A DNA stretch of 64,000 nt from Flavobacteriales bacterium (GTDB lineage: Bacteria; Bacteroidota; Bacteroidia; UBA10329). The notes below the pieces were generated by a model. That model saw only the letters and a program-made list of their open reading frames with translations. It did not search any database and was not told the DNA's origin. This document shows positions 16,631 through 56,508 of this stretch, piece by piece; the stretch's first letter is position 1; every line of letters begins with the position of its first letter. Both the position numbers and the translations under genes were made by a program. The stretch lies in NCBI GenBank assembly GCA_016124845.1, contig WGMW01000009.1:149624-213623 (forward strand), in the 5' to 3' direction.

Positions 16631-16632
16631 TG

Positions 16633-17994: not shown

Positions 17995-18010
17995 TTCACC
18001 TGACACGACA

Positions 18011-25586: not shown

Positions 25587-25942
25587 GGATTAAATGTAGA
25601 GAATACATCCCAACCTACAACTTACAGGAACCGTCAACACAATAGCATGGTTTGAAACTAAGACCTGTTTGCACGAACTGAACAAACTTCGGTAGATAAA
25701 GGGAATTACGGCATTGAGCGCGATACGGTGTACAATACCGTGACCGACTATATGGATTACGACTTCGCTGCGGAAGTCTTGGGGGAGCAGCTATCCAATT
25801 TACCTTAGACATATCCACTCTTCCATTCATTTGGTCGTAGTACGGCCGAATGATACTCCCAATTCATTGCCTGAGTTTCCATTCTTGCCGTCTGAATGAG
25901 CACCCTTGGTATCTCGGTAAGCATTGTATATAAATTTGCAGC

Positions 25943-26539: not shown

Positions 26540-26543
26540 GCTC

Positions 26544-32166: not shown

Positions 32167-32193
32167 ATCCACTTGGGTTCGTTAATTAGCAGA

Positions 32194-33825
32194 ATGGAAT
32201 TCCTGAAGAACAATCGTTTGGTTCTGCATCTGATGATGGGCATTCTGCTCACCATCATCTATCCGATGCAGGAACTGTTCTCAGGCAACCAAAACATCTA
32301 CTTTCTGTGGGGAATGGCCGATTTACTTCCAAATGCATTTACAGCCGACCCACTACTCCAATCTTCCGATCCGTACCCACTTTTCAGTTGGCTCATTTCC
32401 ATTTTTCCTGTTGCGTTCTTGGACGTCTGGACAACTATTCTTTACGTTCTACTCAACGCGATCTATTCATTTTCACTTTTCGGAATTGCCGACCAAGTGG
32501 CCAACATCTATCGCCACAAAAGCCGACTTTTTTCCTTTACGGCACTCTTCCTTTTTCTCCATTCATCGCCCATTTGGGGAACGTATTTCAATCTTATTTC
32601 CGGCCTCGACCTCCGTTGGATTTGGGACAGCGGTATTGCCGAGCAAGGAGTGCTTCGCGGCTACCTGCAACCCAGCGTTTTCGGAGTATTTCTTTTGCTG
32701 AGTTTCTATTTCGCTTCGCGGAGAAATTTTACCGCGGCCATTTTGGCCGTTGCACCAGCAGCAGCCATCCACGCCAATTACCTTTTTCTTGGAGGAATTC
32801 TCACGTTCATTTATCTGATTCAAGCACGGTTTGAAAAGAAATCCATCCTGGCATCCAGCGTCCTTTTGGCTGCAGTTCTCCCCTATTCCATCTATTTGGC
32901 AAACAACTTTTTCCTTCTTGAAGCGGAGCTCAAAACGGCAATCGAACAAGCGGTTTTGGCCAGCTTTGAAAGCAACATTCATCTGAATCCAAGCAACTGG
33001 ATAAATCCAAAGTTCTTCGTTCAACTGGTAGCGCTGTCATTGGGCACCTGCTCAATATGGAATACACGTTTTCGAAACCTCTTTCTCACCATTTTGGGCA
33101 TTGCGGTTGTGCTCACCGCCATTGCGTATATCACAGAAAACACAACGCTGATCAGCCTCAATCCTTGGCGGTTTTCAATTCTGCTGATTCCTGTTTCGGT
33201 CTCGGTTCTCCTCTCAAAATTGATTTCTGCTGGCACTTGGAATCTTCTAAAATCGATTGTAATTCCACTCATTGGAAGCATCTGTGTGATGCTGGTCTAT
33301 TATCGCATTTTCGGGAATTCCTCGTCCGAATTCAAGAATCAATGGTCGGTCATTCACCTTTCCCTTTCTGCGGTCCTGGTGGCTTCCACAGTTTGGCTTT
33401 ACAAATTTGAATGGTACTCAAATAGTCTGTATTCACTTTTGATTTTTGCATTGATCTTGGTCGGAATCACAGACATGTTTATTGAGAAGAAAACCAAGTC
33501 AGCCTCGGAACAATTTCAAGTCATTTCGAAACTGAAAGGCTCAGAGCCGAACACCATCTACATCATTCCACCCGATTGGACCTCCTTCAGAATGAACGCG
33601 CAGAAAGCTGTTTTTGTGGATGAGAATCAGGTTTACGGTCCCGCACTTCCCGCTTTGATGGGACGGAAAGAATGGCTCGAGAAAGGTGATTTCAAATCGA
33701 TTTTTGGTTCAGTGCCATCTGAATACACAGTAAAACTAATAATACCGGATTCACCACAAGCGGACGAAGCCATTCCACGGGAATCCATTACGGGAATCTA
33801 CACCTGTTACGTGATAAGACCATAA
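32194..33825 (+). CDS. Polytopic membrane protein (about 12 TM + C-terminal soluble domain), possible GT-C-type glycosyltransferase
   Basis: Start set at the ATG (MEFLKN); the ORF track begins at a TTG at 32173. Many hydrophobic helices, a periplasmic loop with acidic residues early in the protein, and an approximately 120-aa hydrophilic C-terminus. Confidence 0.45.
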   Translation: MEFLKNNRLVLHLMMGILLTIIYPMQELFSGNQNIYFLWGMADLLPNAFTADPLLQSSDPYPLFSWLISIFPVAFLDVWTTILYVLLNAIYSFSLFGIADQVANIYRHKSRLFSFTALFLFLHSSPIWGTYFNLISGLDLRWIWDSGIAEQGVLRGYLQPSVFGVFLLLSFYFASRRNFTAAILAVAPAAAIHANYLFLGGILTFIYLIQARFEKKSILASSVLLAAVLPYSIYLANNFFLLEAELKTAIEQAVLASFESNIHLNPSNWINPKFFVQLVALSLGTCSIWNTRFRNLFLTILGIAVVLTAIAYITENTTLISLNPWRFSILLIPVSVSVLLSKLISAGTWNLLKSIVIPLIGSICVMLVYYRIFGNSSSEFKNQWSVIHLSLSAVLVASTVWLYKFEWYSNSLYSLLIFALILVGITDMFIEKKTKSASEQFQVISKLKGSEPNTIYIIPPDWTSFRMNAQKAVFVDENQVYGPALPALMGRKEWLEKGDFKSIFGSVPSEYTVKLIIPDSPQADEAIPRESITGIYTCYVIRP

Positions 33826-33849
33826 TGCGTCAATCGTACTTTTGAATTC

Positions 33850-34680
33850 ATGTCCGCAGCAAAGCCCATTCGTCACATCCGTTCGAAACAGTCGTTCTCC
33901 GATTGGCTGCGGCAACTCATAGAAAGGCGCGAAACGCTGTGGTTCTTCATTTGGAAAGATCTGAAAGTGCAGTACCAGAAACCCGTTTTCGGTTTGCTTT
34001 GGTCTGTTTTCCAGCCACTTGTCTATTTCGGGATCATCCTTTCGGTGATGCGATTTTCAGGCAGAACATCAAGCATTTCAGAAATGTCATTTTCGCTTTA
34101 CCTCATCAGCGGTTTGGCCATTTGGAACTTCACCACCTCCAGTATTTTGGGTGCGGTGAACAGCATTCAATCCAATGCTGGCATCATCAGCAAATCATTC
34201 TTTCCGAGGTTTTACTTGATTCTCGCACCCGTTCTCAAAAGCACATTCGACTTCCTCATCATGCTGCTGATTGTGCTTGGTTTTGAAATCTACTTTCAAC
34301 AACCGTTCGTGTTCGAAAACCTCGGTTTTGTGATGACTTCAGTGTTTATCGCGATGACAACCGCACTCGGTTGGTCAGCCATTGCGGCAAGTTTGGTTGT
34401 GGCCAATCGGCACATCAGACATGCCATTCCTGTACTGCTTTATGCCATGATCTTTGCCCTGCCTGTTTTCTATTCGATGCAGGAAATCGGCAACCCAACG
34501 CTTCAAACTGCTTATCACTTCAACCCAATTGCTGGCGCGATGGACCTGCTGCGCAGCGGTTTCGGAAGCGGAATCACCTTGCAGCCGATGGTTTCATGGT
34601 TACTTCAATCCGTAATCTGGTTAGCGCTCGGAATCATCCTTTTCCGAAGAACAGAAAGAACCTTGGCAGATAACGTATGA
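33850..34680 (+). CDS. wzm: ABC-2 type polysaccharide export permease (Wzm/KpsM/TagG family), copy 1
   Basis: 276 aa with 6 TM helices. N-terminus ETLWFFIWKDLKVQYQKPVFGLLWSVFQPL is typical of ABC-2. Confidence 0.85.
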   Translation: MSAAKPIRHIRSKQSFSDWLRQLIERRETLWFFIWKDLKVQYQKPVFGLLWSVFQPLVYFGIILSVMRFSGRTSSISEMSFSLYLISGLAIWNFTTSSILGAVNSIQSNAGIISKSFFPRFYLILAPVLKSTFDFLIMLLIVLGFEIYFQQPFVFENLGFVMTSVFIAMTTALGWSAIAASLVVANRHIRHAIPVLLYAMIFALPVFYSMQEIGNPTLQTAYHFNPIAGAMDLLRSGFGSGITLQPMVSWLLQSVIWLALGIILFRRTERTLADNV

Positions 34681-35876
34681 AGGTGATCAGCGCAGAACGG
34701 CTTTCGAAATCGTACTTCCTGAAAACGGAAGGCGACCGCGAATTCCACGCGCTGAAAGACATTTCTTTCGACATCAACGAAGGCGAAATAGTTGGCATTA
34801 TTGGCCACAACGGAGCGGGAAAAAGCACGCTTCTGAAACTGCTTTCTGGCATCACACTCCCTACTTCGGGCGAAGCCAAAGTGGTCGGCTCGTTCTCCAG
34901 CCTACTGGAGGTCGGCACAGGTTTCCATCCTGATCTGAGCGGCCGCGACAATATCTTTCTGAATGCTTCCATTCTCGGCATTTCCCGTAAGGAAGTCCAA
35001 GCAGAAATGGACAATATCATTGCGTTTTCGGGCGTGGAAAAATTCATCGACCAACCGCTGCGCACTTACTCCAGCGGCATGAAACTGCGCTTGGCGTTTT
35101 CCATCATCGCGCACCTCAAAACCGACATCATTGCGTTGGACGAGGTGCTTGCTGTGGGCGATTCCATGTTTCAGTTGAAATGCATGGAGCGCATCTTTGA
35201 TTTCAAGCAGCAAGGTCGAACGATTCTGTTCGTCTCACATAATCTGAGTGCAGTGAAAAAACTCTGCGAACGGACAATTGTGCTTAATGCTGGCGAGATT
35301 ATCTACGATGGACCGACAGAGGAAGCGATTGACTTTTATTTGGATTCGAACCGAACGGGAAATGCACTTGACGAAATAAGATTTGTGAAGAGAATTGAAG
35401 TGATGACCTCCCCCAACCCCTCCTTTCCAGGAGGGGAGCTGTCACTTCGCTCTGACGCTGGATCAGCGAACCAGCTCTCCCCCTTGAAAGGGGGAGTACT
35501 CCGCCTGAGGCGGAGGGAGGGGGTCTATACAAGAATTCTCCTCCATTTTCATGAGCTCCCATCCGATTCCGAACTGGACCTCGGCATCAACATCAGCACA
35601 CAAGATGGCATGCCACTCTATCATTTCAGCAACCGATTCTTGGGCAAAACATTGATTCCCAAAAACGGAGCGTTAGAGCTCGAACTGGCCTTCAATCATC
35701 AGTTGAAAGCAGGTAATTACCACGTTTCAGTTTACATCGGCCAAGATGAACAGCAGTTGCTTTGGCAAGAAAATGCTGCCACGCTGACCGTTGCTCCATT
35801 TACGCCTTACGGCTTCCACAATCCTGATGCAATTCAAGCATCAATCATCACAGATTTCGACATTAAGCAGCTGTAG
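34677..35876 (+). CDS. wzt: Polysaccharide export ABC ATP-binding protein (Wzt/TagH family) with C-terminal extension, copy 1
   Basis: Walker A GHNGAGKST, signature YSSGMKLRL and Walker B IIALDEVL. The approximately 160-aa C-terminal domain contains the in-frame repeat insertion. Confidence 0.85.
   Translation: MKVISAERLSKSYFLKTEGDREFHALKDISFDINEGEIVGIIGHNGAGKSTLLKLLSGITLPTSGEAKVVGSFSSLLEVGTGFHPDLSGRDNIFLNASILGISRKEVQAEMDNIIAFSGVEKFIDQPLRTYSSGMKLRLAFSIIAHLKTDIIALDEVLAVGDSMFQLKCMERIFDFKQQGRTILFVSHNLSAVKKLCERTIVLNAGEIIYDGPTEEAIDFYLDSNRTGNALDEIRFVKRIEVMTSPNPSFPGGELSLRSDAGSANQLSPLKGGVLRLRRREGVYTRILLHFHELPSDSELDLGINISTQDGMPLYHFSNRFLGKTLIPKNGALELELAFNHQLKAGNYHVSVYIGQDEQQLLWQENAATLTVAPFTPYGFHNPDAIQASIITDFDIKQL
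35408..35523. repeat. Intragenic C/G-rich triple-hairpin palindromic element inserted in-frame in wzt
   Basis: Three consecutive stem-loops: cccctcc/ggagggg, ctccccc/gggggag and ctccgcc/ggcggag. Length about 116 nt. It encodes the low-complexity SPNPSFPGGELSLRSDAGSANQLSPLKGGVLRLRRREGVY. It shares the ctcccccaNcccct leader with the hairpin at 24889. Confidence 0.5.
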
Positions 35877-37849
35877 TGAAAACGCCCATTCTTTTACTGG
35901 TTTACAATCGCCCGAAGCAGACCTCAATGGTCCTGAAACGGTTGCAGCAATGTGATGTAAAGAACGTTTTCGTTTCTGCTGATGGACCGAAAAACGCTGA
36001 AGACAGAATGCTCACCGAAGAAGTGGAATCGGTTTTGAACCGCTTCGATACTATCTTCAAAAGCAAACGCTTTTCCGATAAGAATCTTGGCTGCAAGCAC
36101 GCAGTCATTTCCGGAATTGACTGGTTTTTCAATCAGGTTGACGAAGGCATCATTTTGGAAGATGATTGTCTTCCATGTCCGCACTTTTTTCCATTCGTAG
36201 AAGAACTGCTGAACCGCTATCGCGATGAGCGGAAAGTGATGATGGTCGGTGGCAACAATCCGCTGGGTGAATGGCAAACCGAAGGCGGCCATTTCTTCTC
36301 GCGTATCGGTACCGTTTGGGGCTGGGCCACTTGGAAAGACCGCTGGCAAACATTCAACTCCGAACTTCCTGAGTTTGACCATTTCATTTCGAGTCGAGGT
36401 TTTGAACGCGCATTCGGGCCTACGAAATTGGCCGCATCACGACTTGAATTGACACGAAAATCATTGCGTGGAGAAATCGATACATGGGATTATCAATGGA
36501 ATGCCCACATGCTCATGAACCAAGGTGTGGCTGTGATTCCTGAACGGAATCTGGTTGAGAACATTGGTTTTGAAAATAGTGGAACGAACATTAACTCAAA
36601 ACCGAATTGGATAGTGAATGAAGTCTCTAATGAACCATTGAAAATCGGTTCACAAAAGCTCCATTCCGACCGCGAATTTGAAGTGGAATGGGAATTGGCG
36701 AGACGGTCGAATTTACCCGGAAATACTTCTTCGAAATCGTTTCAAGAAAAAGGAGAAAAGGAAAAACGGAGGTGGAAAATCCTCATCATCAACTCAACCG
36801 ACATGGGCGGTGGCGCGGAGAAAATTGCGTTTACGCTTCATGAACAATTGTTAGCACTTGGACATGATTCGCAGTTGCTGGTTCAGGTCAAAAAATCGGA
36901 TTTAGATTCCATCCAAGAGATTGCGGATTGGAAATCGCAGATTGAGAACTTTCAACCCGATGTGATCCATATCCACAACCTCCACGGGACTTCGATTCCG
37001 TTGGATGTATTGTCCGAAATCTCACGAAGCATTCCCGTGTTTTTCACATTGCATGATTCCTGGCTGGCAACAGGAAGTACAGAACATCCTTTCGAACCGG
37101 AGCCAGAAAAACTGAATCTCTTGGAATTGTTAGAATGGCAGAAGGAATTCACCCATCGACACGAGGTGATTTCCAATAGTAATTTCTGTTTCACCGCCCC
37201 AAGCCAATGGATGCGCGAATTGTTTTTCAATGCTCATGGCATCCGGCCGTTTTTCGTTCCGAATTCCATTGAAAAAGTAGCCCCAAGTGAGATTGAAATT
37301 CCATCAAAGCGTTTCATTCTTTTTGTGGCCAATCGGCCTGAAACGAATCCCTACAAGGATTTTGCTACGCTAAAAAAGGCGTGGAAAAAAGCCAATGAAA
37401 CACAGGGAGAATACGGTTGTGACCTGATTGTTCTCGGGGGCGAACCGAAAACCGAAAAAGTCGGAAACCGAACGCTTTTCATCATAGAAAAACAGTCAAC
37501 AGAAAATGTCTTGGCCTTCATAGAAAAATCACTTTTAGTGATCCAGGCAAGTTTGCAAGACAATGCTCCGCTCACCATTTTGGAAGCGCATTCTGTGGGT
37601 AAAAGCTTGGTCGGTTCTTTGGTTGGTGGTATTCCTGAATTGATGGATGAGGAAGAAAAAGAGTGGCTTTATGAAGCGGAAAGCGCGGATGACCTGTGCG
37701 AGAAATTGATTGCTGCGTTGCAATCAGAGACAAGAGGTAGAGAGACAAGAGACAAGGAAACGTGTTCTATATGTTCTATAGAATCAATTGTCAACACGTA
37801 TCTTGGTCATTATCTGTCTCTCCAAAGTCGTCAACTTTCACAAAGTTGA
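35876..37849 (+). CDS. Two-domain glycosyltransferase: N-terminal GT-A-like domain (DxD-like EDDC) fused to C-terminal GT4 (GT-B) domain
   Basis: 657 aa. N-terminal approximately 270 aa (…ILEDDCLP…) and C-terminal approximately 350 aa (…IHIHNLHG…, …EAHSVGKSLVGSLVGGIPEL…). Its start overlaps the wzt stop. Confidence 0.7.
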   Translation: MKTPILLLVYNRPKQTSMVLKRLQQCDVKNVFVSADGPKNAEDRMLTEEVESVLNRFDTIFKSKRFSDKNLGCKHAVISGIDWFFNQVDEGIILEDDCLPCPHFFPFVEELLNRYRDERKVMMVGGNNPLGEWQTEGGHFFSRIGTVWGWATWKDRWQTFNSELPEFDHFISSRGFERAFGPTKLAASRLELTRKSLRGEIDTWDYQWNAHMLMNQGVAVIPERNLVENIGFENSGTNINSKPNWIVNEVSNEPLKIGSQKLHSDREFEVEWELARRSNLPGNTSSKSFQEKGEKEKRRWKILIINSTDMGGGAEKIAFTLHEQLLALGHDSQLLVQVKKSDLDSIQEIADWKSQIENFQPDVIHIHNLHGTSIPLDVLSEISRSIPVFFTLHDSWLATGSTEHPFEPEPEKLNLLELLEWQKEFTHRHEVISNSNFCFTAPSQWMRELFFNAHGIRPFFVPNSIEKVAPSEIEIPSKRFILFVANRPETNPYKDFATLKKAWKKANETQGEYGCDLIVLGGEPKTEKVGNRTLFIIEKQSTENVLAFIEKSLLVIQASLQDNAPLTILEAHSVGKSLVGSLVGGIPELMDEEEKEWLYEAESADDLCEKLIAALQSETRGRETRDKETCSICSIESIVNTYLGHYLSLQSRQLSQS

Positions 37850-37868
37850 CGACTTTCAAGCGCAAGAA

Positions 37869-38810
37869 ATGCCCGAATTCTCCATCATAACACCGGTGCT
37901 GAACCAAGCTTCGACCATTGAAAAATGCATCGAATCGGTTGCCATGCAAAACGTGGATGTTGAACACATTATCATTGATGGTGGCAGCACTGACGGAACG
38001 GTTGACATCATCCGAAAACACGAAGACAAACTTGCGTTTTGGGTAAGCGAGCCTGACCGTGGACAAGGCCATGCCATCAACAAAGGATTGAAACGGACAA
38101 CTGGAATTTGGTTCAACTGGCTGAACGCAGATGACCAACTGACGGAGAATGCTTTGCAAACTGTTCTTGAAACCGCAAAACCAGACACCGAAGTGGTGGT
38201 TGGCAAATGCCGACACATTAACGAGAAAAACGATACCGTTGCGGAAGGTTCTGCGCGCATTTGGGATTCATTGGCAGCCACTTTGGGCAACTACAGCATG
38301 GGGCAGCCATCCGTCTTTTACCGAACAGAAACCGTGGAACAGTTGGGCGATCTGAACGAAAACCTCCACCTCTGTTTGGATATGGATCTGTGGTTCCGTT
38401 TTCTGCTGAAATTCGGGCAAGACCACATTCAAACCACTGATACGGTTCTGTCAGAATTCTTGGTTCACAAGGGCGGAAAATCCTCTTCTCAGGCTGAGCA
38501 AATGCGAGCCGAGAAATACGGCATTTACCATGCGCTTCTTTCCAATTTTGAACTGCCAGAGGTAATTGCGCACTTCCTTTCACTTCATCCGATCCCTGAA
38601 TCTGTCAGCTACCAACCTCCATCCGGCCTGAACGCAGAAGAACTGTTATCCAACTTTGCGTGGCATCTGATGGTAGGTGCTTATGACCAGAACGCGCTGG
38701 AGGTATGCCAACTCTTTTTTGACGTGGTGAAAAAAGGTTCCCGATTGTCCGAACGGCAGAAGTTGGAATGGATTGCCCGTATCGCATCGGCCAAATTCAC
38801 GCTACGATGA
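37869..38810 (+). CDS. Glycosyltransferase family 2
   Basis: The start at MPEFSIITPVLNQ is the internal Met of ORF 37788. DGGSTDGT and DxD (NADDQ) motifs are present. Confidence 0.8.
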   Translation: MPEFSIITPVLNQASTIEKCIESVAMQNVDVEHIIIDGGSTDGTVDIIRKHEDKLAFWVSEPDRGQGHAINKGLKRTTGIWFNWLNADDQLTENALQTVLETAKPDTEVVVGKCRHINEKNDTVAEGSARIWDSLAATLGNYSMGQPSVFYRTETVEQLGDLNENLHLCLDMDLWFRFLLKFGQDHIQTTDTVLSEFLVHKGGKSSSQAEQMRAEKYGIYHALLSNFELPEVIAHFLSLHPIPESVSYQPPSGLNAEELLSNFAWHLMVGAYDQNALEVCQLFFDVVKKGSRLSERQKLEWIARIASAKFTLR

Positions 38811-39748
38811 CTACGGGACCATTAGTCAGCATTCTGATGCCTGCTTACAATGCGGGGAAATTCATTACAAACTCCATCGAATCAGTTCTGAATCAGGATC
38901 ATCAGAATTGGGAATTATTGATTCTGGATGATGCGAGTACAGACTCTACCAATGAAATCATCGAGTCATTCTGCGATGAACGAATCAAAATCTCAGCACA
39001 TCGGGAAAACCAAGGTTATCTGATTACATGCAATGAATTGTTTGAGAAAGTACAAGGTGACTTCATTACATTTCTGGATGCGGACGACACCTGTTCCAAG
39101 AATAGGATCTCAACCTGTTTGGCGGCATTCGAATCTGACCCGCAATTGGATTTTCTGACCACGGATCATTCCAAAATTGACGAATCGGGGCGGCAACTTT
39201 CGGAACAACAGGTATCGGTTGATTACGACAGATACGCAACGGATCCAAACTATTACCCGACCATCTGCTGTGCTACGATCTTTCTTCGAAAAAAGCTGCT
39301 GCAACAGGTTGGTGGCTACCATCCGTTCTTTAAAGAAATTGGAGGTGAGGATTACCATTGGCTATTCCAATTGAGCAGGAAAGGAAAAGGCAAGCACGTG
39401 TCAGAACCCATGTATTTCTACCGCAAACATGCAAATCAGCTTCACCTAAAAAACCGGAATCCGCTCAAGTATTTTGCAAAAGAGATCGATCAGGAGATAA
39501 GAAAAGAACTGCTGGTTGGTAATGCCCTGCTATCTGAACCGGAGTCTTTGAGGGAGAAATGGCAATCCAAAATTGAAAGCCAACCATCCGAACTTTCTTT
39601 CAGGAAAGCTGCTGAAGCAATCAATGAAGGAAATCTAAAGTCGTTTTTATCTTTTTTGACAGCTGGTATTTTTGCCAGCCCATTGAAACTGAAGAATGTT
39701 AAACGAGGTGCTTACCTCGCTTATTCATTTCTTGCGCGAATCGCGTAG
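38807..39748 (+). CDS. Glycosyltransferase family 2
   Basis: Start at MTTGPLVSILMPAYN, in an ATGA overlap with the upstream stop. LDDASTD and DADD motifs are present. Confidence 0.8.
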   Translation: MTTGPLVSILMPAYNAGKFITNSIESVLNQDHQNWELLILDDASTDSTNEIIESFCDERIKISAHRENQGYLITCNELFEKVQGDFITFLDADDTCSKNRISTCLAAFESDPQLDFLTTDHSKIDESGRQLSEQQVSVDYDRYATDPNYYPTICCATIFLRKKLLQQVGGYHPFFKEIGGEDYHWLFQLSRKGKGKHVSEPMYFYRKHANQLHLKNRNPLKYFAKEIDQEIRKELLVGNALLSEPESLREKWQSKIESQPSELSFRKAAEAINEGNLKSFLSFLTAGIFASPLKLKNVKRGAYLAYSFLARIA

Positions 39749-39762
39749 CCGAAATACTATCT

Positions 39763-40635
39763 TTGGGCGCATTCGGAATGGCTACAGGCACAGAAGAAAA
39801 TTGGTCGCTCGTCATCAAGCCGCAGTCAAAATGGCTTGACCTTAAACTCGATGAGATCTGGGATTACCGCGACCTGATCTGGATTTTCGTGAGAAGGGAC
39901 ATTGTGGCAGTTTACAAACAGACCGTGCTTGGTCCGTTGTGGTTCTTCCTTGCACCAATTTTCACTGTCATTGCGTACAATTTTGTTTTTAACACGATTG
40001 CCGGTATTGATACTGATGGTATTCCTCCGTTGGTATTTTATATGGCAGGCACCACACTTTGGAATTATTTTCAGGTCAGTTTTACAAGTACATCAAATAC
40101 GTTTACCGGAAACGCGGCCATTTTTGGCAAGGTCTATTTTCCCCGAATGGTGGCCCCTATCTCCATGGTTATTTCCGGCATGTTCAAATTCGGAGTTCAG
40201 ATGTTGATGTTCCTGACCTTTCTTGGATATTACTTGATATTTGAGCAGACCAGCTTACATTTTACAAAGTGGGTGTTTGCATTTCCTTTACTCGTTCTTA
40301 TGATGAGCGGTCTATCGTTGGGATTTGGAATTATTGTTTCCGCCCTTACCACGAAGTATCGTGACCTTAAGAACTTCATTGGATTCGGAGTGACTCTGCT
40401 GATGTATGTTACCCCTATCATCTATCCGGCATCCGCTCTCAAAGGCAATCTTGTTTGGGCGGTCAGGCTGAATCCCATCGCTCCGATCATTGAAGCCTTC
40501 AGGCTCGGTTTTACCGGAAACGGGACTGTTTCGGTAGCTGAGGTGGTATATAGCGGAATTTTCACACTGATCATTCTGTTTATTGGTTTGGTAACATTCC
40601 ATCGTGTGGAACGAACATTTATGGATACTGTCTGA
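39763..40635 (+). CDS. wzm: ABC-2 type polysaccharide export permease (Wzm family), copy 2
   Basis: 290 aa with 6 TM helices. The ABC-2 N-terminal motif (LIWIFVRRDIVAVYKQTVLGPLWFFLAP) is present. Confidence 0.85.
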   Translation: MGAFGMATGTEENWSLVIKPQSKWLDLKLDEIWDYRDLIWIFVRRDIVAVYKQTVLGPLWFFLAPIFTVIAYNFVFNTIAGIDTDGIPPLVFYMAGTTLWNYFQVSFTSTSNTFTGNAAIFGKVYFPRMVAPISMVISGMFKFGVQMLMFLTFLGYYLIFEQTSLHFTKWVFAFPLLVLMMSGLSLGFGIIVSALTTKYRDLKNFIGFGVTLLMYVTPIIYPASALKGNLVWAVRLNPIAPIIEAFRLGFTGNGTVSVAEVVYSGIFTLIILFIGLVTFHRVERTFMDTV

Positions 40636-41888
40636 TGAGCGATGTGGTCATTAAGGTTGAAAACCTTTCCAAGCAATATAGGCTTGGAATGGTCGGTGCA
40701 GGGACCTTGCGCGAAGATCTGGTCGGATGGTGGTACCGAGTTCGAGGAAAAGAAGATCCCTACCTGAAAATCGGTGAGGCCAATGATCGTTCCTCTACGG
40801 GAAACAGTGATTACGTCTGGGCACTTCGGGATATAGATTTTGAAGTTAAAAAAGGGGAAGTTTTAGGAATCATTGGCAAAAATGGAGCAGGCAAGAGTAC
40901 ACTTCTAAAACTACTTTCCAGAGTTACAGCACCAACTTCTGGGACAATCAAAGCCAAAGGAAGGATTGCAAGTCTTCTGGAAGTTGGAACAGGTTTTCAT
41001 CCTGAATTGACAGGTAGAGAGAACATCTACCTGAATGGTGCCATTATGGGAATGCGGAAATCTGAAATTACCTCCAAATTTGACGAGATAGTCGATTTTG
41101 CAGGTGTGCAGAGATATGTTGACACACCTGTAAAAAGATATTCATCTGGAATGTATGTGCGGTTAGCATTTGCAGTTGCAGCACATCTGGAACCGGAGAT
41201 TTTGATCGTAGATGAGGTGCTTGCTGTCGGTGATGCCGAATTTCAGCGAAAGGCCATAGGTAAGATGGAAGATGTTTCGAATGCGGAAGGGCGCACGGTT
41301 CTTTTCGTAAGCCACAATATGAAGGCTGTACGTTCTCTATGTTCGCGTGCTATCTTATTAGAAAATGGTCAAGTTACAATGAATGCGGACTCAGATGATG
41401 TGGTTGATCGCTACCTGTACACCAACTACCATAGCGAGAGTAAGCTTGTTTATGAAGTTCCTGACGTAGACAATTCATCGGAGGCCCACCTGCTATCAGC
41501 CAAGGTAATCAGCGACACACCTATAACTACGGAGAGCACCATCATGCTTGAAGCAGAGGTTTTGTTCAACGCGGCAGTAGAATTCCACATGAACATTCAT
41601 GTCTATTCCTTCGAGCGAGACCACTTGTTCCAAGCTTCGAGTAAGGTACTAAAGTCGCAGAAGGGAGATAAGGTAAAAGTCCGTTTTACTATTCCGCCAC
41701 ACCTACTGAATGAGAAGTTGCACTCCATCACGGTCACCTTCGTTAAAAACCGATCGACCACCTTTAAACTTATCGATAACGTGCTGGTATTCGGTATTTC
41801 CGAAGACAGGAACAACCTGAACTGGTATGGCAAAACTCCAGGACTGCTGAAACCGGAAATTCCGTCAATCGTTACCAAGCTGAAATGA
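40635..41888 (+). CDS. wzt: Polysaccharide export ABC ATP-binding protein (Wzt family) with C-terminal extension, copy 2
   Basis: Walker A GKNGAGKST, signature YSSGMYVRL and Walker B ILIVDEVL. An approximately 170-aa C-terminal beta-rich domain is present. Confidence 0.85.
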   Translation: MSDVVIKVENLSKQYRLGMVGAGTLREDLVGWWYRVRGKEDPYLKIGEANDRSSTGNSDYVWALRDIDFEVKKGEVLGIIGKNGAGKSTLLKLLSRVTAPTSGTIKAKGRIASLLEVGTGFHPELTGRENIYLNGAIMGMRKSEITSKFDEIVDFAGVQRYVDTPVKRYSSGMYVRLAFAVAAHLEPEILIVDEVLAVGDAEFQRKAIGKMEDVSNAEGRTVLFVSHNMKAVRSLCSRAILLENGQVTMNADSDDVVDRYLYTNYHSESKLVYEVPDVDNSSEAHLLSAKVISDTPITTESTIMLEAEVLFNAAVEFHMNIHVYSFERDHLFQASSKVLKSQKGDKVKVRFTIPPHLLNEKLHSITVTFVKNRSTTFKLIDNVLVFGISEDRNNLNWYGKTPGLLKPEIPSIVTKLK

Positions 41889-42564: not shown

Positions 42565-42572
42565 TCTTGACA

Positions 42573-43395: not shown

Positions 43396-44487
43396 ATGGC
43401 CGACCGCATTAACGTAACCAAAACACACTTGCCTCCGCTGGATGAATACCAGCGGATGATCGGAGAGATATGGAAGTCCGGTCAGTTGACAAACGTGGGG
43501 GCAAAACATGTTGAGCTTCAGAATAAACTGAAAGAATACTTAGGAGTAAAACACTTGCAGCTGGTCTCTAACGGGACGATAGCCATACAGCTTGCCATTA
43601 AGGCCTTGGGGCTAACTGGCGAGATCATTACAACTCCATTCTCATACGTAGCAACGGTATCATCCATTGTATGGGAAAATTGCTCACCTGTTTTTGTAGA
43701 CATTGACAGAGACGATTTCTGTGTTGATGCAACCAAGATCGAAGCAGCAATAACCGAGAATACCTCGGCCATTCTTGCAACACACGTTTATGGTATTCCA
43801 TGTAACGTGGAATTGATACAAGAGATCGCAGACCGACACAACCTAAAGGTGATCTACGATGCTGCACATGCTTTCAGTATTGAACTGGATGGAAAGTCAC
43901 TCTTGAACTACGGAGATGTTTCAACGCTCAGCTTTCATGCAACCAAAGTGTTTCACACGGGCGAGGGCGGTGCAGTAGTAACCGATAATGATGAACTCGC
44001 TCATAAATTATGGTACCATGGAAACTTTGGGCACCGCGGACCAGAAGAGTTCTGGGGATTGGGCATTAATGCAAAAATGTCGGAGATACATGCTGCTTTG
44101 GGGTTGTGCATTCTTCCATGTATGGATGAAATTCTCAGAAATCGGAAAAAAACGGTAGTCCTTTATGATAAGATTTTCACTCCTGTAAAATCGGTCAAAC
44201 GCTTGGACATCAAGAAAGGAATCAAACACAATTACTCATACTATCCTGTAGTTTTCGATTCGGAAGAAACGCTGCTTTCAGTGCTTGATGCGCTTCAAAA
44301 GCTGAACATTTATCCGAGACGTTACTTCTACCCTTCGTTGAACAAGCTTCCATATCTGCACAAACATGTAGAAATGCCTGTTGCCGAAGACATAAGCAGG
44401 AGAATTCTTTGTCTTCCACTTTCTTCAGATCACAACGCTGATGTGGTGAATACGATCGGGTCAGCAATCATTGATATTGTCAAATGA
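43396..44487 (+). CDS. DegT/DnrJ/EryC1/StrS family PLP-dependent sugar aminotransferase
   Basis: 363 aa. …LSFHATKVFHTGEGGAVV… carries the PLP-lysine motif, and the fold looks like an amino-sugar transaminase. Confidence 0.88.
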   Translation: MADRINVTKTHLPPLDEYQRMIGEIWKSGQLTNVGAKHVELQNKLKEYLGVKHLQLVSNGTIAIQLAIKALGLTGEIITTPFSYVATVSSIVWENCSPVFVDIDRDDFCVDATKIEAAITENTSAILATHVYGIPCNVELIQEIADRHNLKVIYDAAHAFSIELDGKSLLNYGDVSTLSFHATKVFHTGEGGAVVTDNDELAHKLWYHGNFGHRGPEEFWGLGINAKMSEIHAALGLCILPCMDEILRNRKKTVVLYDKIFTPVKSVKRLDIKKGIKHNYSYYPVVFDSEETLLSVLDALQKLNIYPRRYFYPSLNKLPYLHKHVEMPVAEDISRRILCLPLSSDHNADVVNTIGSAIIDIVK

Positions 44488-45221
44488 CCAGAATCCTACT
44501 CATTTCTGACATTGGGTTTCAGATCGAACATTTCAGGAAGCTGTTCGCAATTCATAAGTGCGATTCATTTGCCACACTCTCCGTTCACTGCTCACCTGGC
44601 AGCGAAACAGAACTGAAGAATGTGAGTCCAGCGGTCACTTCGTTGAACATCAAAGAAAATGTTGAGTGGATATTGACCTCTTTCGATGTTGTGGTCTCCT
44701 ACCATTGCCGTCAACTGTTTCCAGCAGAAATTGTACGCCATCTGCGCTGCATCAATATTCATCCTGGTCTTAATCCGTATAACCGCGGTTGGTATCCGGG
44801 AGTGTTCAGCATTGCCAATGGACTTCCCGCTGGCGCTACCATTCATGAAATTGATGAGAAGATCGATAATGGGCCGATAATAGCCCAGAAACAGATTGAG
44901 ATTCTCCCAGAAGACACTTCAGGCACGGTCTACCCCAAGATCATTCAGGCGGAATACGACCTGTTGGAGGAGTGGTTCATGCCCATGCTTACTGGCAACT
45001 ATAAGACATTCAGCCCGAGCGAAACGGGAAATCTCAACTACAAAAAAGACTATTACGCACTTCAGCAACTTGACCTGAATCAGACCTCAACTGTTGGAGA
45101 AACCATTGATAAGTTAAGAGCGCTAACCCACCCACCCTACAAGAACGCTTACTTTATTGACAAGGAAACGGGTGATAAAATTTACATCTCCGTGGAGATG
45201 AAACGCGTAAAAAAAGAGTGA
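44484..45221 (+). CDS. Sugar N-formyltransferase (Fmt-like formyl_trans_N family)
   Basis: The catalytic motif NIHPGLNPYNRG is a variant of N-x-H…SLLP…RG. An Asp is present downstream. It is adjacent to the aminotransferase gene. Confidence 0.75.
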   Translation: MTRILLISDIGFQIEHFRKLFAIHKCDSFATLSVHCSPGSETELKNVSPAVTSLNIKENVEWILTSFDVVVSYHCRQLFPAEIVRHLRCINIHPGLNPYNRGWYPGVFSIANGLPAGATIHEIDEKIDNGPIIAQKQIEILPEDTSGTVYPKIIQAEYDLLEEWFMPMLTGNYKTFSPSETGNLNYKKDYYALQQLDLNQTSTVGETIDKLRALTHPPYKNAYFIDKETGDKIYISVEMKRVKKE

Positions 45222-45919
45222 TGAGGGTGGCAATAATGCAACCGTATCTCTTTCCGTACATCGGGTATTTTCAGCTTATCCATGCGGTGGATAGGTTTGT
45301 GGTGTTTGATGATGTGAACTTCATTAAACGCGGGTGGATAAACCGGAACCGAGTTCTTCTCAACGGAAACGACCACATGTTTACTGTGCCACTTATTGGG
45401 GTCAGTCAGAACAAACTCATCAATGAAATAAGGATTGACCCGAACACAAAATGGCGCGAAAAGATTCTGACCACGATAAGGCATGCCTACAAGTCAGCAC
45501 CTCATTTCGATGAAGTTTACCCTTTGATTGAATCCGCTTTCATGAATGATTCTGACATGATATCAGACTACGCCAGAAACAGTTTGGAAGTAATCTGTAA
45601 GTACCTGAAGATCGAAACATCCATCATCAGCAGTTCCAAAACTTACAATGGCTCTGAACTGAAAGGAGTAGAACGAATTATTGACATCTGCAAAAAGGAA
45701 AAAGCTAATACATACATTAACGCAATTGGAGGAACCGACCTGTACAATCAATCTCAATTTGAAAGTGATGGTATCAAACTTCATTTCCTAAAGACTGACA
45801 ACATCAGCTACACACAGGGTAAAAATGAATTTGTGAAAGGTCTTTCCATTATTGATGTCGTTATGTTCAACTCCGTTGAGCAGACCCGAAATCTGTTGAA
45901 CCAGTATCAGCTGATATGA
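45218..45919 (+). CDS. WbqC-like family protein
   Basis: The N-terminus VAIMQPYLFPYIGYFQLI is the WbqC signature. Confidence 0.7.
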   Translation: MMRVAIMQPYLFPYIGYFQLIHAVDRFVVFDDVNFIKRGWINRNRVLLNGNDHMFTVPLIGVSQNKLINEIRIDPNTKWREKILTTIRHAYKSAPHFDEVYPLIESAFMNDSDMISDYARNSLEVICKYLKIETSIISSSKTYNGSELKGVERIIDICKKEKANTYINAIGGTDLYNQSQFESDGIKLHFLKTDNISYTQGKNEFVKGLSIIDVVMFNSVEQTRNLLNQYQLI

Positions 45920-46545
45920 CCAAGAAGTACGACAAAATTGTAAAGCATTACGAAGATTGTCTTGACCAGCATGGCGACACTCACAAGGGAGTTGACTGGC
46001 CAAATCCGGAGGATGCTGAGGTTAGATATTCGGTGATGTTGGGAATTGCCACGTTTCATGATGTTAATGAAACCACCTCCATTCTCGACTTTGGCTGTGG
46101 CACTGGTCATCTACTGGAGTACATCTCGGGCAATACTGAAATAAAAATTGAATACAGCGGACTGGACATTTCCAAGAAGTTTGTTGATGTTGCCCGATCG
46201 AAGTTCCCGAACAACACCTTTTACTGTTTGGACATTCTTGAAACACCGATCGGAAGAACATTCGATTTCATTGTAATGAATGGCGTTTTCACCGAAAAAC
46301 GAGAACTTTCCTTTGATGAAATGTGGGAGTATTTCACCAACATGCTCAAGGTGGTTTTTGACTATTCCGATAAAGGGATCGCCTTCAACGTAATGTCTAA
46401 GAACGTTGATTGGGAGCGCGAGGACCTTTTCCATGTCTCTCTTGATAAACTGACCGACTTTCTGGTCAAGAACCTAACCCGTAACTTCGTTATCCGCAAC
46501 GATTACGGACTCTACGAATACACCGTTTACGTTTACAAAAACTGA
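45916..46545 (+). CDS. Class I SAM-dependent methyltransferase
   Basis: Motif I ILDFGCGTGHL. Confidence 0.8.
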   Translation: MTKKYDKIVKHYEDCLDQHGDTHKGVDWPNPEDAEVRYSVMLGIATFHDVNETTSILDFGCGTGHLLEYISGNTEIKIEYSGLDISKKFVDVARSKFPNNTFYCLDILETPIGRTFDFIVMNGVFTEKRELSFDEMWEYFTNMLKVVFDYSDKGIAFNVMSKNVDWEREDLFHVSLDKLTDFLVKNLTRNFVIRNDYGLYEYTVYVYKN

Positions 46546-46546
46546 C

Positions 46547-47200
46547 ATGGCCAAAGTTGTCGTATTTGGAATTCAAGATTTTGCCGAACTGGCCCATTAC
46601 TACCTGACAAACGACTCTGACCACGAAGTGGTGGCTTTCTCTGTGAACGCATCTTACCTCCCGGAAAGCAAAGAGTTTCGCGGACTTCCAGTTGTTGCAT
46701 TTGAAGAAGTGGAGCACATCTATCCTCCATCGGAGTTCAAGTTCTTTGCACCTATGGCTCCCAATAGAATGAATCGTCTTCGTGAAGAGGTCTACTTGGC
46801 CATAAAGGAAAAGGGATATGAATGTATTTCTTACATAAGTACGAAAGCAACTGTTTGCGATAATAAAATCGGTGACAATTGCTTCATTCTCGAAGACAAT
46901 ACGCTACAACCGTTCACTACCATTGGCAACAACGTTGTGATGTGGAGCGGCAATCATATTGGGCATCACGGAGTTATCAAGGATCATGTAATGTTCACAT
47001 CACATGTGGTTCTTTCGGGCCATTGCGTGATCGAAAACTATTGTCTCCTTGGTGTAAATAGTACCATACGAGATGGTATAACATTAGCCGAAGGCACATT
47101 CGTAGCCATGGCAGCGGCAATAACCAGAAATACTGAGCCTTGGAGCTTTTACAAGGGGAATCCAGGGATTTCGACTGACAAATCCACGAAAGACCTCTGA
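46547..47200 (+). CDS. Sugar N/O-acyltransferase, NeuD/PglD hexapeptide-repeat family
   Basis: Rossmann-like N-terminus (VVVFGIQDFAELA), followed by left-handed beta-helix hexapeptide repeats. Confidence 0.75.
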   Translation: MAKVVVFGIQDFAELAHYYLTNDSDHEVVAFSVNASYLPESKEFRGLPVVAFEEVEHIYPPSEFKFFAPMAPNRMNRLREEVYLAIKEKGYECISYISTKATVCDNKIGDNCFILEDNTLQPFTTIGNNVVMWSGNHIGHHGVIKDHVMFTSHVVLSGHCVIENYCLLGVNSTIRDGITLAEGTFVAMAAAITRNTEPWSFYKGNPGISTDKSTKDL

Positions 47201-47202
47201 CC

Positions 47203-48132
47203 GTGTGGATCAAGAAAGGGCTTGTCTTTAATGTTGATGGAAGCCAAGCATGGAATAAGAGCCATGCTCAGGTTCCTGTAGTAGACGTGTTGGCAGACCG
47301 TCTGCGCATCTATTATGCAACAAGAAATGTGGAGGGTAAAAGCAATATTTCGTTCATCGAAACGGATAAAGAAAACCCTTTGAAGCTCACCTATGTCCAC
47401 GACAAGTGCCTATTCGATTTTGGCCAATTAGGAACATTTGATGACAGCGGGATCATGCCTTCGTGCATTCTTAATGTCGGTGAACTTAAGTACCTATACT
47501 ACATAGGTTGGACCACACGCGGAACGGTTCCTTACCAGAACGCAGTTGGCTTAGCTGTAAGTTCTGATGGAGGAATCACATTTTCAAGAGTTTCTGAAGG
47601 CCCGATCATCACCGTAAATGCAATAGAACCATACTTTTCCGGGACGTCATTTGTCATGCACGAGAATTCACGTTTCAAGATATGGTACCTCTCTTGTACA
47701 GGTTGGACGAACATGGAAGGCAAACCCGAACCGCTTTACAATATCAAATATGCAGAATCGAATGATGGGAGAAACTGGAACCAAACAGGTACTGTAGCCA
47801 TCGAATTGCAGGATGATGAAGGTGGTCTCGTAAGTGCCAGTGTTATCCGCACTGACGGCATTTACAAAATGTGGTTTGGCAAAAGGAAAGCCACAGATTA
47901 CAGAAACAATCCAGACAATACGTACCGTATCGGCTATGCTGAGTCAACGGATGGAATTAATTGGATCAGAAAAGATGAACTTTCAGGAATAGACGTGAGC
48001 GAGGTCAGTTGGGACTCTCAAATGATCTCATATCCTTATGTGGTAGAAGTCGATGGTCGGCTGTTGATGTTTTACAACGGAAACGGATTTGGCAAAAGCG
48101 GATTCGGATATGCTGAGTGGAATTCTAATTGA
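47203..48132 (+). CDS. Beta-propeller protein (GH43/GH130-like fold), hypothetical glycan-processing enzyme
   Basis: 309 aa with a GTG start. Repeated Asp/Trp-containing blades (SSDGGITF, SNDGRNW, STDGINW). Confidence 0.45.
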   Translation: MWIKKGLVFNVDGSQAWNKSHAQVPVVDVLADRLRIYYATRNVEGKSNISFIETDKENPLKLTYVHDKCLFDFGQLGTFDDSGIMPSCILNVGELKYLYYIGWTTRGTVPYQNAVGLAVSSDGGITFSRVSEGPIITVNAIEPYFSGTSFVMHENSRFKIWYLSCTGWTNMEGKPEPLYNIKYAESNDGRNWNQTGTVAIELQDDEGGLVSASVIRTDGIYKMWFGKRKATDYRNNPDNTYRIGYAESTDGINWIRKDELSGIDVSEVSWDSQMISYPYVVEVDGRLLMFYNGNGFGKSGFGYAEWNSN

Positions 48133-48138
48133 AAGCAA

Positions 48139-48966
48139 ATGAGCGAACTGGAATTTTATAATGAGAACGGATATGTACTCAAACAATCGTTTTTCGATAC
48201 AGGTGAAGTCGCAAACATTCTTAATGAAGCCAAGGGGGTTTTCCTGAAACAATTTCAAGCAAAAGGTTATTTCAACGACTCCACCTTGCTGAAAGACATC
48301 TCTGAAAAGGGCTTTAATTCCGCCTTGTTCAGGTTGTTTCAAGAAGACTTTCAGTGCCTCAGTAATTGTGGAAAGCAAGTTCAGCATCTGATTGACCTAC
48401 ACCGCTTGAGTTTGGATGAACGCATAGTTAGAACCATCCGTTCCCTTGGAATGGAGGTTCCTGTTGTCAGCACTCGCCCGGTACTATTCTTCAATCATCC
48501 AAATCTGGCTAAAGAAAAGGTCTACTATCAAGTCGATGCACATCAGGATTGGCGTAGCATGCAAGGTTCTTTGAACTCAATGGTAGTCTGGATTCCACTC
48601 GTTGATGTTCCGTTGGAGTTGGGTGCCCTTCAAGTGCTACCGAAAAGCCACTTGATGGGGCTCAGAACAGACCATTTACACCAAGGTTTTGGTATGGTGA
48701 AGCTAACGCCCGAGGAGGAGAAATCGCTGGTATCGGTTGAAGTAAAAGCAGGGGATGCACTTTTCTTCTCCAGCTTTCTCATTCATCAGAGCGGACAGAA
48801 CACCAGCGAAAATCCACGGTGGAGTACACATTTCCGCTACAACGACCTCAATGAACCGACCTTTGTACAGAGAGGTTACCCACATGCTTACATTTACCGT
48901 CCGGTCGGTGAGCAACTAACCCCAGACTTTCCCAGCTTGGAACAGGTAAAAGCAACATTTAAATGA
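48139..48966 (+). CDS. Phytanoyl-CoA dioxygenase (PhyH) family Fe(II)/2-oxoglutarate oxygenase
   Basis: HxD (HQDW) … H (FLIHQSG) facial triad, with a C-terminal Arg (RWSTHFRY). Confidence 0.75.
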   Translation: MSELEFYNENGYVLKQSFFDTGEVANILNEAKGVFLKQFQAKGYFNDSTLLKDISEKGFNSALFRLFQEDFQCLSNCGKQVQHLIDLHRLSLDERIVRTIRSLGMEVPVVSTRPVLFFNHPNLAKEKVYYQVDAHQDWRSMQGSLNSMVVWIPLVDVPLELGALQVLPKSHLMGLRTDHLHQGFGMVKLTPEEEKSLVSVEVKAGDALFFSSFLIHQSGQNTSENPRWSTHFRYNDLNEPTFVQRGYPHAYIYRPVGEQLTPDFPSLEQVKATFK

Positions 48967-49685
48967 AAACGGTAGAAACCAAGGTACGTTCGACTCCAAT
49001 GAAACTGATGGCACATACTCGGTCATTGGAACTATGCTCAAGAATGAACTACGAGACTGAGAACCTGGATTTCATCGACAAGATGAAGGAAGGTGATGTG
49101 ATGTACGACCTCGGTGCCTGTGAAGGCCGGTTCTCCGTTTATGCTGCCCTCCATGGAATTAGATGTGTGTCATTCGAACCAGAGCAGGAAAACTTCAAGG
49201 TGCTGACCAGCAATATTGAACTCAATGGAATAGACGGTTCGCTTATAACCCCGCTGAACTATGGCGTAAGTGACCAAACGAAGGAAGGACGCATGAACAT
49301 TGGTCAACCTTGGGCCGGAGGTCATCAAAAAGTAGTGGACAGTGGTGAAAAACGAGCTGATCTTGACTTCGATTTCAAAACGGTGCAAGAAATCAAGTTG
49401 ATAAGCCTTGATGACGCAGTTGTCAAATTGGGCATTCCGTTACCAAACTATCTCAAAGTTGATATTGATGGTTCGGAAATACCTTTTATGCGAGGTGCGC
49501 AGAAGGTTTTGTCAGGACCTCAACTCACGGGAGTCATTTATGAGTTGCAAGTTGAAGATGAGAGTTATGATTTTGTCGTAAAGAACCTTGCAGAACATGG
49601 CTTCAGAGAAAACTCTAGGCACCAAGTACCGAACGAGCCGAACCTGTTCAATATCATCTTCTACAGAGATGAGCAGCCCAGCTGA
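48963..49685 (+). CDS. FkbM family methyltransferase
   Basis: The MYDLGACEGRFSV glycine-rich SAM motif is typical of FkbM. Confidence 0.75.
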   Translation: MKTVETKVRSTPMKLMAHTRSLELCSRMNYETENLDFIDKMKEGDVMYDLGACEGRFSVYAALHGIRCVSFEPEQENFKVLTSNIELNGIDGSLITPLNYGVSDQTKEGRMNIGQPWAGGHQKVVDSGEKRADLDFDFKTVQEIKLISLDDAVVKLGIPLPNYLKVDIDGSEIPFMRGAQKVLSGPQLTGVIYELQVEDESYDFVVKNLAEHGFRENSRHQVPNEPNLFNIIFYRDEQPS

Positions 49686-50622: not shown

Positions 50623-50683
50623 GAGTTATTATCATCTTCAGTTTGAGTAGAAAACAATAATTTTTCAGTTCTTAGGTACCAAT

Positions 50684-51712: not shown

Positions 51713-51743
51713 ACTGAACAAACCTTTCGTTTTACCCTACCGA

Positions 51744-54618: not shown

Positions 54619-54659
54619 CCACTTTCAGAAATTTTTCCGGAGTTCTAATTTTGTTCTTC

Positions 54660-55679: not shown

Positions 55680-55798
55680 TTCGACTTCTTTGAATCATTG
55701 AATTACCAAAATCACGTAACGAACCAGCCTTTGTGTCTTTAGTTTTTCTTTCTTTAGGCCAACGATCGCAGGTTTGCGACAAACAGAATGCAATCTGA

Positions 55799-56506: not shown

Positions 56507-56508
56507 CA

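Follow-up and report, generated by a model that had tools for sequence, protein, structure and literature searches.

A Flavobacteriales glycan locus with two separable modules, each containing a complete Wzm/Wzt exporter pair

Glycan loci that depend on ATP-binding cassette (ABC) exporters are usually described with a single Wzm/Wzt pair of permease and ATPase. Here we describe a locus with two such pairs, found in a stretch of 64,000 nucleotides from contig WGMW01000009.1 of an uncultured Flavobacteriales bacterium (assembly GCA_016124845.1, a metagenome-assembled genome (MAG) with locus tags GC178_), this whole stretch being referred to below as the window. The locus comprises 27 genes that all read in the same direction, on the plus strand (32173-58598); no intergenic gap exceeds 119 bp, and neighbouring genes often overlap at their starts and stops. 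Since a scan for sigma-70 promoters and terminators was no better than in shuffled controls (16 versus 18 expected, 11 versus 15) and its consensus is not that of the Bacteroidota, the operon structure was judged from gene spacing alone. The run is made up of two separable modules, module 1 (32173-39748) and module 2 (39763 to about 58598), with one exporter pair in each.

A preliminary description of this DNA had placed two complete Wzm/Wzt pairs at 33850-35876 and 39763-41888. Both were found as intact open reading frames (ORFs) at exactly these coordinates, the seven ORFs of pair 1, the intervening glycosyltransferases (GTs) and pair 2 all lying where they had been reported. It had overlooked the gene for a protein of the GT-C fold at 32173-33825, which heads module 1 and is the hallmark companion of pair 1. 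The absence of Wzx/Wzy, Wza/Wzc and an initiating transferase that it had reported agrees with our Pfam search, in which none of the window's genes matched the families Wzx, Wzy, Wza, Wzc, WecA or WbaP.

The two exporter pairs

Wzm1 has no Pfam match of its own. It is identified as an ABC-2 permease because it aligns with Wzm2 over its full length (26% identity, E 6e-24), because it matches TarG (4.6e-6) and mycobacterial Wzm (4.9e-5) in the PDB, because its orthologues (77-89% identity) carry PF01061 and bear the source names of lipopolysaccharide (LPS) or polysaccharide export permeases, and because its five strong hydrophobic segments are in register with those of Wzm2, a sixth not being resolved. 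Aquifex Wzm was not reached by Wzm1 in the PDB search at E values up to 10. The possibility that Wzm1 is the permease of a drug or lipoprotein exporter was ruled out by the TarG and Wzm matches together with the polysaccharide-export orthologues. Wzm2 scores 56.4 bits with ABC2_membrane (E 3.8e-15, Pfam cut-off 26.9) and finds mycobacterial Wzm (1e-15), TarG (1.7e-15), Aquifex Wzm (5e-14) and KpsM (1.7e-6) in the PDB.

The ATPase domain of Wzt1 (residues 1-220, ABC_tran E 1e-20) has a complete set of motifs, namely GHNGAGKST (Walker A), YSSGM (signature), IIALDE (Walker B) and VSHN (H-loop). It is followed by a hypervariable linker (221-290) and a conserved Wzt_C domain (291-399; PF14524, 36.5 bits, cut-off 30.4), in the core of which the motifs DLGINI..LYHFSNRF..HQLKPGNY..PYGFHNPDAIQA are kept in relatives. 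Next to Aquifex Wzt, its PDB matches include TarH at 1e-54 and KpsT at just 2e-31. Wzt2 comprises an ATPase domain (residues 1-262, ABC_tran 83 bits), in which Walker A, signature, Walker B and H-loop are all intact, and a hypervariable Wzt_C-type domain (263-417). The latter scores 22.4 bits with Wzt_C (E 1.3e-4), which is under the same Pfam cut-off, and had no relatives in a PDB profile search; the Wzt2 orthologue in one related locus (L046) also has a weak Wzt_C match.

The divergence of the two pairs that had been noted before is borne out, since the Wzm proteins are only distantly similar, as given above, the Wzt ATPase domains share 52% identity and the Wzt C-terminal domains gave no pairwise alignment. 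When profiles of the C-terminal domains were compared with hhalign, the two were connected with a probability of 91.8% (E 7e-7, 129 columns, ~7% identity). The proposal that both Wzts carry carbohydrate-binding C-terminal extensions is upheld for Wzt1 by the Wzt_C match over the cut-off and made probable for Wzt2 by its profile link to Wzt1. We conclude that both C-termini are, as far as sequence profiles can tell, Wzt_C-type domains, with predicted binding surfaces that are unrelated.

The class of exporter was judged by PDB match scores, used as a proxy for a phylogeny with named references. Both Wzts are closest to the Wzt of Aquifex aeolicus, followed by TarH/TagH and mycobacterial RfbE/Wzt, with KpsT much further away. 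By this measure both pairs are predicted to belong to the glycan-exporter clade, with Aquifex Wzt, TarGH and mycobacterial Wzm/Wzt as their nearest solved relatives. It had been set beforehand that a pseudogene, or membership of a non-glycan ABC-2 family, would speak against two working pairs; all four genes are intact and their matches are to glycan exporters. From this homology and from the neighbouring GT genes we infer that both pairs may export completed polysaccharides linked to undecaprenyl diphosphate, in a manner gated by the cap. A KpsMT system of the group 2 capsule type was rejected, since the KpsE (PCP-3), KpsD (OPX) and KpsS/KpsC families have no Pfam match in the window, and the PDB matches to KpsM and KpsT are far below those to Wzm/Wzt and TarGH.

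Table 1. Features of the two-module locus, with the evidence for each assignment
Feature	Position	Strand	Evidence or remark
GT-C-fold polytopic membrane protein, DUF6798-related	32173..33825	+	structural matches
Wzm1, divergent ABC-2 permease, 276 aa	33850..34680	+	Wzm2 similarity, PDB matches, orthologues
Wzt1, 399 aa	34677..35876	+	ABC_tran and Wzt_C above Pfam cut-off; Aquifex Wzt 9e-63
Two-domain GT, 657 aa	35876..37849	+	Pfam GT4 C-terminal; AlphaFold2 (AF2) and Foldseek N-terminal
Soluble GT2 (GT2a)	37869..38810	+	Glycos_transf_2 8e-26; ORF opens 37788, likely start M28
Second soluble GT2 (GT2b)	38807..39748	+	Glycos_transf_2 2e-33; ORF opens 38768, likely start M14
Wzm2, canonical Wzm-type ABC-2 permease, 290 aa	39763..40635	+	ABC2_membrane and PDB matches
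Wzt2, 417 aa	40635..41888	+	ABC_tran 4e-23; Aquifex Wzt 1.5e-62
Small S-adenosylmethionine (SAM) methyltransferase	41896-42564	+	Pfam
TOD1/MUCI70-like GT-like protein	42534-43340	+	Pfam
DegT-family sugar aminotransferase and dTDP-4-amino-4,6-dideoxyglucose N-formyltransferase	43396..45221	+	Pfam, NCBIfam
Six-gene sugar-modification sub-cassette	45218..49685	+	Pfam, NCBIfam
Eight GT2, one methyltransferase, one GT4	49588..58598	+	Pfam; ends the co-directional run

Modules 1 and 2 and their relatives

Relatives were gathered by scanning a genome collection with the 657-aa GT and a metagenome collection with Wzm2, contigs of distant GT-C and Wzm1 homologues were added, and the window proteins were mapped onto all loci (designated by L numbers). 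Module 1 keeps the order GT-C, Wzm1, Wzt1, 657-aa GT, GT2, GT2 down to 30-38% GT-C identity, and it does so in different genomic neighbourhoods, namely Ddl/Ham1 (the window, L005, L042, L046 and L048), dnaA/ABC-F (L038, L043 and L045) and two epimerases with a desaturase (L041 and L044). The 657-aa GT and the two GT2s had previously been seen as a spacer between the pairs, a view that has to be given up, since they form a conserved block with GT-C and pair 1, in which they provide module 1 with its conserved machinery for synthesis. Between GT-C and Wzm1, lineages that are more distant carry a conserved minus-strand ORF of ~210 aa, which has no Pfam family and is absent from the window (L038 11685-12323, L041 11692-12321, L043 9235-9873 and L045 11800-12438).

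Both modules are found in tandem in L005, L006, L038, L042, L043, L046, L048 and L050. Module 1 stands alone in L041, where it is followed by an alpha/beta-hydrolase-like ORF and housekeeping genes and no second pair is found within 10 kb. Module 2, which starts with Wzm2/Wzt2, opens glycan loci without a nearby module 1 in L078, L060, L065, L069 and L084, and in L078 it lies directly downstream of housekeeping genes, the upstream genes being GcvP, a cargo protein of the type IX secretion system (T9SS), UbiA and a peptidase. Furthermore, inserts are located exactly at the junction of the modules: L038, L043 and L045 have an epimerase there, L005 has a minus-strand ORF and L058 has ~2.2 kb. Since the modules can be found apart and since the inserts lie at their junction, the two pairs belong to separable units.

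Whether relatives carry the two pairs in separate loci had been chosen beforehand as a test, and the outcome was mixed, for each module is found alone elsewhere but the tandem itself is conserved, in at least two contexts. By the measure of separate loci, what the window holds is two units placed next to each other and not a single, integrated pathway. The preliminary description had offered two distinct polymers or a composite (mosaic) locus as alternatives; modules that are joined here and each alone elsewhere support both of these together.

The protein that heads module 1 probably starts at M8 (nt 32194), giving 543 aa, and has the polytopic membrane fold common to ArnT, PglB, AftA and the ALG enzymes, with AftA and ArnT among its top structural matches. 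An aspartate after the first membrane helix (D59) is nearly invariant, as are D146, D152 and E157 in a second conserved loop. The protein belongs to an uncharacterised subfamily related to DUF6798, in a family of about 1,900 clusters at 50% identity.

The 657-aa protein had been described as a fused GT-A/GT4 enzyme, and both halves of that assignment stand. A GT4 region at residues 340-623 is its sole Pfam match, and the N-terminal domain, for which there is no Pfam family, is predicted by AF2 with a pLDDT of 92 and matched by Foldseek to POMGnT1 and GnT-I (E 2e-10 to 2e-9, TM 0.52-0.61); its profile gives weak PDB matches to the same two proteins (E 0.04-0.2). The layout is a GT13-like GT-A domain (~1-250), a charged linker and the GT4 domain (~310-657), with an EDD motif (E95-D96-D97) invariant in 41 sequences of the N-terminal domain. 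We therefore use "GT13-like" for a modelled GT-A fold that appears closest to GT13, a likeness at the level of fold that stops short of CAZy GT13 membership. The comparison with processive polymerases such as WbdA did not hold, since WbdA polymerises its repeat unit with two GT4 (GT-B) mannosyltransferase domains, and the present protein has one GT4 and a GT13-like GT-A. The N-terminal domain (35876-36745) has more than 7,700 family matches, mostly stand-alone bacterial proteins of ~300 aa from many phyla, again with no Pfam model; the single source name encountered among them is 'GR25 family glycosyltransferase involved in LPS biosynthesis'.

GT2a has no hydrophobic segments and shares 44-82% identity with its relatives, and GT2b has no membrane segments and shares 44-63%. 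A role for either as a GtrB-like polyprenyl-phosphate sugar synthase was rejected on account of the missing membrane segments and of the weakness of the ArnC-type matches. This bears on the idea that module 1 serves to decorate the polymer of module 2, with Wzm1/Wzt1 exporting a short lipid-linked donor and GT-C modifying the chain, as a variant of the three-component systems. Periplasmic decoration of ABC-dependent O antigens by GT-C enzymes is established (PMC11127046), and with no GtrA, SMR or MATE flippase detected by Pfam in the window, an ABC pump could fill that role. Decoration of this kind nevertheless seems quite unlikely to us, since the Wzt_C domain of Wzt1 is a genuine one, as is typical where capped polymers are exported, since four cytoplasmic GT domains far exceed the needs of a decorating donor, since GT2a and GT2b are not GtrB- or ArnC-like and since module 1 exists alone in L041.

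The C-terminal domains of the two Wzts have evolved in opposite ways (Table 2). In Wzt1 the C-terminal core tracks the ATPase domain, and its long motifs are kept in all lineages. In Wzt2 the ATPase domain remains at 73-79% identity in relatives, whereas the C-terminal domain is at 16-41% and its alignment has six invariant columns in total. Such a contrast, with one C-terminal domain conserved and the other hypervariable, is predicted if there are two terminal structures, and hence two polymers.

Table 2. Identity (%) of Wzt domains in relatives to those of the window proteins
Locus	Wzt1 ATPase / linker / C-terminal core	Wzt2 ATPase / C-terminal domain
L001	94 / 14 / 80	contig ends before Wzt2
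L005	77 / 9 / 66	79 / 41
L006	fragmented	78 / 20
L042	56 / 13 / 33	73 / 21
L038	65 / 11 / 44	77 / 17
L043	65 / 7 / 42	77 / 16

The genes downstream of Wzt2 differ in content among relatives, with the TOD1-like, DegT and formyltransferase genes recurring. The TOD1-like gene follows Wzt2 or Wzm2 in L003, L005, L047, L048, L050, L052, L078 and L081, and the aminotransferase/formyltransferase duo is found again in module 2 of L003, L042, L048, L050, L052, L053 and L078. Among the compared loci the small methyltransferase is found in this genome only, no homologue having been detected in any of the others. With 266 bits the formyltransferase exceeds the cut-off of NCBIfam PRK07579 (238), and the best NCBIfam match of the aminotransferase, under its cut-off, is of the DesI type, so that the duo probably represents a pathway to Qui4NFo (4-formamido-4,6-dideoxyglucose). 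The sub-cassette that follows encodes a WbqC-like protein, a methyltransferase, a NeuD/PglB/VioB-family acetyltransferase, a GH130-like protein, a PhyH dioxygenase and an FkbM methyltransferase. It is 91-97% identical to positions 14895-19347 of the metagenome contig L050, while the nearby Wzm2, Wzt2, TOD1-like and DegT proteins are at 47-79%, which suggests that the sub-cassette was recently exchanged by recombination inside module 2. Two of its genes (47203-48966), the GH130-like one, which is a weak match, and that for the PhyH-family Fe(II)/2-oxoglutarate dioxygenase, are unusual in sugar-nucleotide pathways and have no NCBIfam assignment. The gene content of the GT array that ends the module is partly common to relatives.

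Serotype-specific binding domains that read the cap are established for the Wzts of Escherichia coli O8/O9a and related systems (PMC11127046). The combination found in module 2, a conserved transporter body with a swapped binding domain amongst mosaic genes, is the pattern of serotype-specific ABC-dependent O antigens (PMC11127046).

The remainder of the window contains T9SS core genes, housekeeping genes and regulators. On the minus strand at 741-5636 lie gldM, gldL, a gldK-like gene with an FGE-sulfatase domain and a PorP/SprF gene, all of type IX secretion or gliding. A T9SS-cargo protein of 654 aa (27587-29551) lies close to the glycan locus, a position that is conserved in relatives. Three ORFs at 15266-17994 and 25805-26695, of 454 and 463 aa (plus strand) and 296 aa (minus strand), match none of the Pfam families at E values up to 1e-5. 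After module 2 there is a third glycan block in a different orientation (58593-64000, continuing in L040 1-7132), with a minus-strand GT2, a PGA_cap-family protein, two asparagine-synthase-like proteins, four GT4s and a 473-aa protein without a Pfam family; housekeeping genes resume ~7 kb past the end of the window.

One or two exported glycans

We consider it fairly probable that the locus comprises two independent ABC-dependent modules placed head to tail, most likely for two polyprenol-linked polysaccharides, each with its own cap-checking Wzm/Wzt. Module 1 would then provide a lineage-conserved glycan, built in the cytoplasm by four transferase domains. The conserved C-terminal domain of Wzt1 would recognise the conserved terminus of this glycan, Wzm1/Wzt1 would move it across the inner membrane, and GT-C would then act in the periplasm, either decorating the glycan or passing it on to the final acceptor. 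Module 2 would produce a strain-variable, O-antigen-like polymer, probably with Qui4NFo or Qui4NAc and methylated residues, by means of ~10 GTs, and Wzm2/Wzt2 would export it after a cap check of its own. Recombination would shuffle the module 2 genes, and the C-terminal domain of Wzt2 would diversify alongside.

Several observations weigh against two independent modules. The modules are adjacent in at least 12 of the 13 informative module 1 loci and in tandem in two of the three contexts, a linkage beyond what two unrelated pathways would require, which hints at functional coupling. In several loci Wzm2 is found without an adjacent Wzt2 or a remnant of it (L002 13875-15485; L003 13845-14761 and L047 4272-5164; L045 19657-20741; L081 2-510). 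Wzm2 in these loci is at 64-79% identity, with a TOD1-like or DegT gene directly after it, and in L002 and L003 it is the best conserved protein of the cassette (75-79%). Such loci fit poorly with a model in which every polymer strictly has a pump of its own; either Wzt2 has been displaced, perhaps to a site further downstream, or both permeases are served by Wzt1. In a close relative, L006 (MAG HK-STAS-BACT-68, 8806-11951), Wzt1 appears as two ORFs, of 234 and 145 aa, and the 657-aa GT as three, of 124, 87 and 281 aa, its N-terminal part being divergent (43% identity); Wzm2/Wzt2 are intact. This could represent module decay, allelic replacement or an error of MAG consensus or assembly. No initiating transferase, ligase or chain terminator was identified for module 1 or module 2, and all of the relatives are uncultured MAGs or metagenome contigs.

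The frequent adjacency could be accounted for if two separately exported polymers were joined in the periplasm by GT-C into one composite glycan, its stem conserved and its distal chain variable. Pathways that combine an ABC exporter with Wzx in dual-chain assembly have been described for cell-wall polysaccharides of Lactococcus and Enterococcus, and the assembly considered here would be their counterpart with two ABC exporters. The conservation of the tandem in at least two genomic contexts, the position of an enzyme of a periplasm-acting GT-C fold at the head of the cassette and the wholly co-directional, closely spaced run of genes would all suit this explanation. GT-C, however, stays with module 1 where module 2 is missing (L041), and module 2 can stand alone without this GT-C nearby (L078), so that we regard such joining as unlikely. 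We would give the same small chance to a single pathway with two pumps, in which the chains are joined, or jointly attached to an acceptor, by GT-C and in which Wzt1 drives both permeases in the variants that lack Wzt2.

The loci with Wzm2 and no Wzt2, together with the fragmented Wzt1 and 657-aa GT of L006, could also mean that one pump suffices and that the second pair is a relic of fusion, partly decayed, or is interchangeable with the first for one polymer. This we find very improbable. All four window genes are intact with complete ATPase motifs, both pairs have been kept across lineages as far apart as 30-38% GT-C identity, and C-terminal domains that differ as much as these do in profile alignment imply different ligands. 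Moreover, the high conservation of Wzm2 in L002 and L003, where Wzt2 is missing, points to selection rather than decay. Two independent modules with a polymer each remain the explanation that we prefer.

Comparison with known systems

All components of the locus are of known kinds and it does not represent a new principle; it is for the tandem arrangement and for the GT-C subfamily that no earlier description was found. In our literature search two complete tandem Wzm/Wzt pairs were not described, the nearest cases being a Burkholderia cluster (PMC3541218) and a loosely annotated one in Massilia, and no paper found in that search mentioned DUF6798 or described the GT-C subfamily. The locus offers a natural side-by-side contrast within one genome between a cap-reading domain that is conserved and one that diversifies with recombining genes, which should help to show how the specificity of exporters and the structure of their glycans evolve together. 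It also gives the DUF6798-related GT-C and the bacterial GT13-like GT-A family a first functional context that can be tested. The practical impact is limited, since all of the carriers are Flavobacteriales that have not been cultured and none of the components is new in kind.

The systems of E. coli O9a/O8 and Klebsiella O3/O5 likewise have an ABC-2 permease and a Wzt_C-containing ATPase beside cytoplasmic GTs, with a binding domain that is serotype-specific, as the hypervariable C-terminal domain of Wzt2 may also be. They have the polymerase WbdA and the terminator WbdD, a coiled-coil kinase/methyltransferase of which no likeness is found here, and the present locus further differs from them in its two tandem pairs, its multidomain GT of GT13-like GT-A and GT4, and its Flavobacteriales host. 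The Wzm/Wzt of Aquifex aeolicus (6oih, 6m96, 7k2t, 8dku) is the best solved match of both ATPases (~1e-62) and a good one for Wzm2, but its C-terminal domain has no sequence-level alignment with either Wzt C-terminus. Wzm/Wzt together with a GT-C enzyme that modifies the chain after its export is also seen in Citrobacter youngae O1/O2, a three-component system with GT136, and in the mycobacterial galactan pathway with AftA and others (PMC11127046). Unlike those systems, module 1 has no polyprenyl-phosphate sugar synthase or small flippase, and its GT-C is DUF6798-related.

Multiple Wzm/Wzt components are known in Burkholderia pseudomallei, where O antigen and capsule are served by loci of their own, with wzm/wzt and wzm2/wzt2. 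The gene names wzm2/wzt2 occur in PMC10913486, and the type B O-antigen cluster of this species has two wzt and one wzm homologue (PMC3541218). B. pseudomallei belongs to another phylum, however, and is not known to have two complete pairs in tandem or a conserved GT-C partner. Pseudomonas aeruginosa produces an ABC-exported common polysaccharide antigen and a variable O-specific antigen of the Wzx/Wzy type, encoded at separate loci. The Flavobacteriales locus would resemble it in supplying one conserved and one variable glycan per cell, but here both are served by ABC pumps, and the genes for the two lie side by side.

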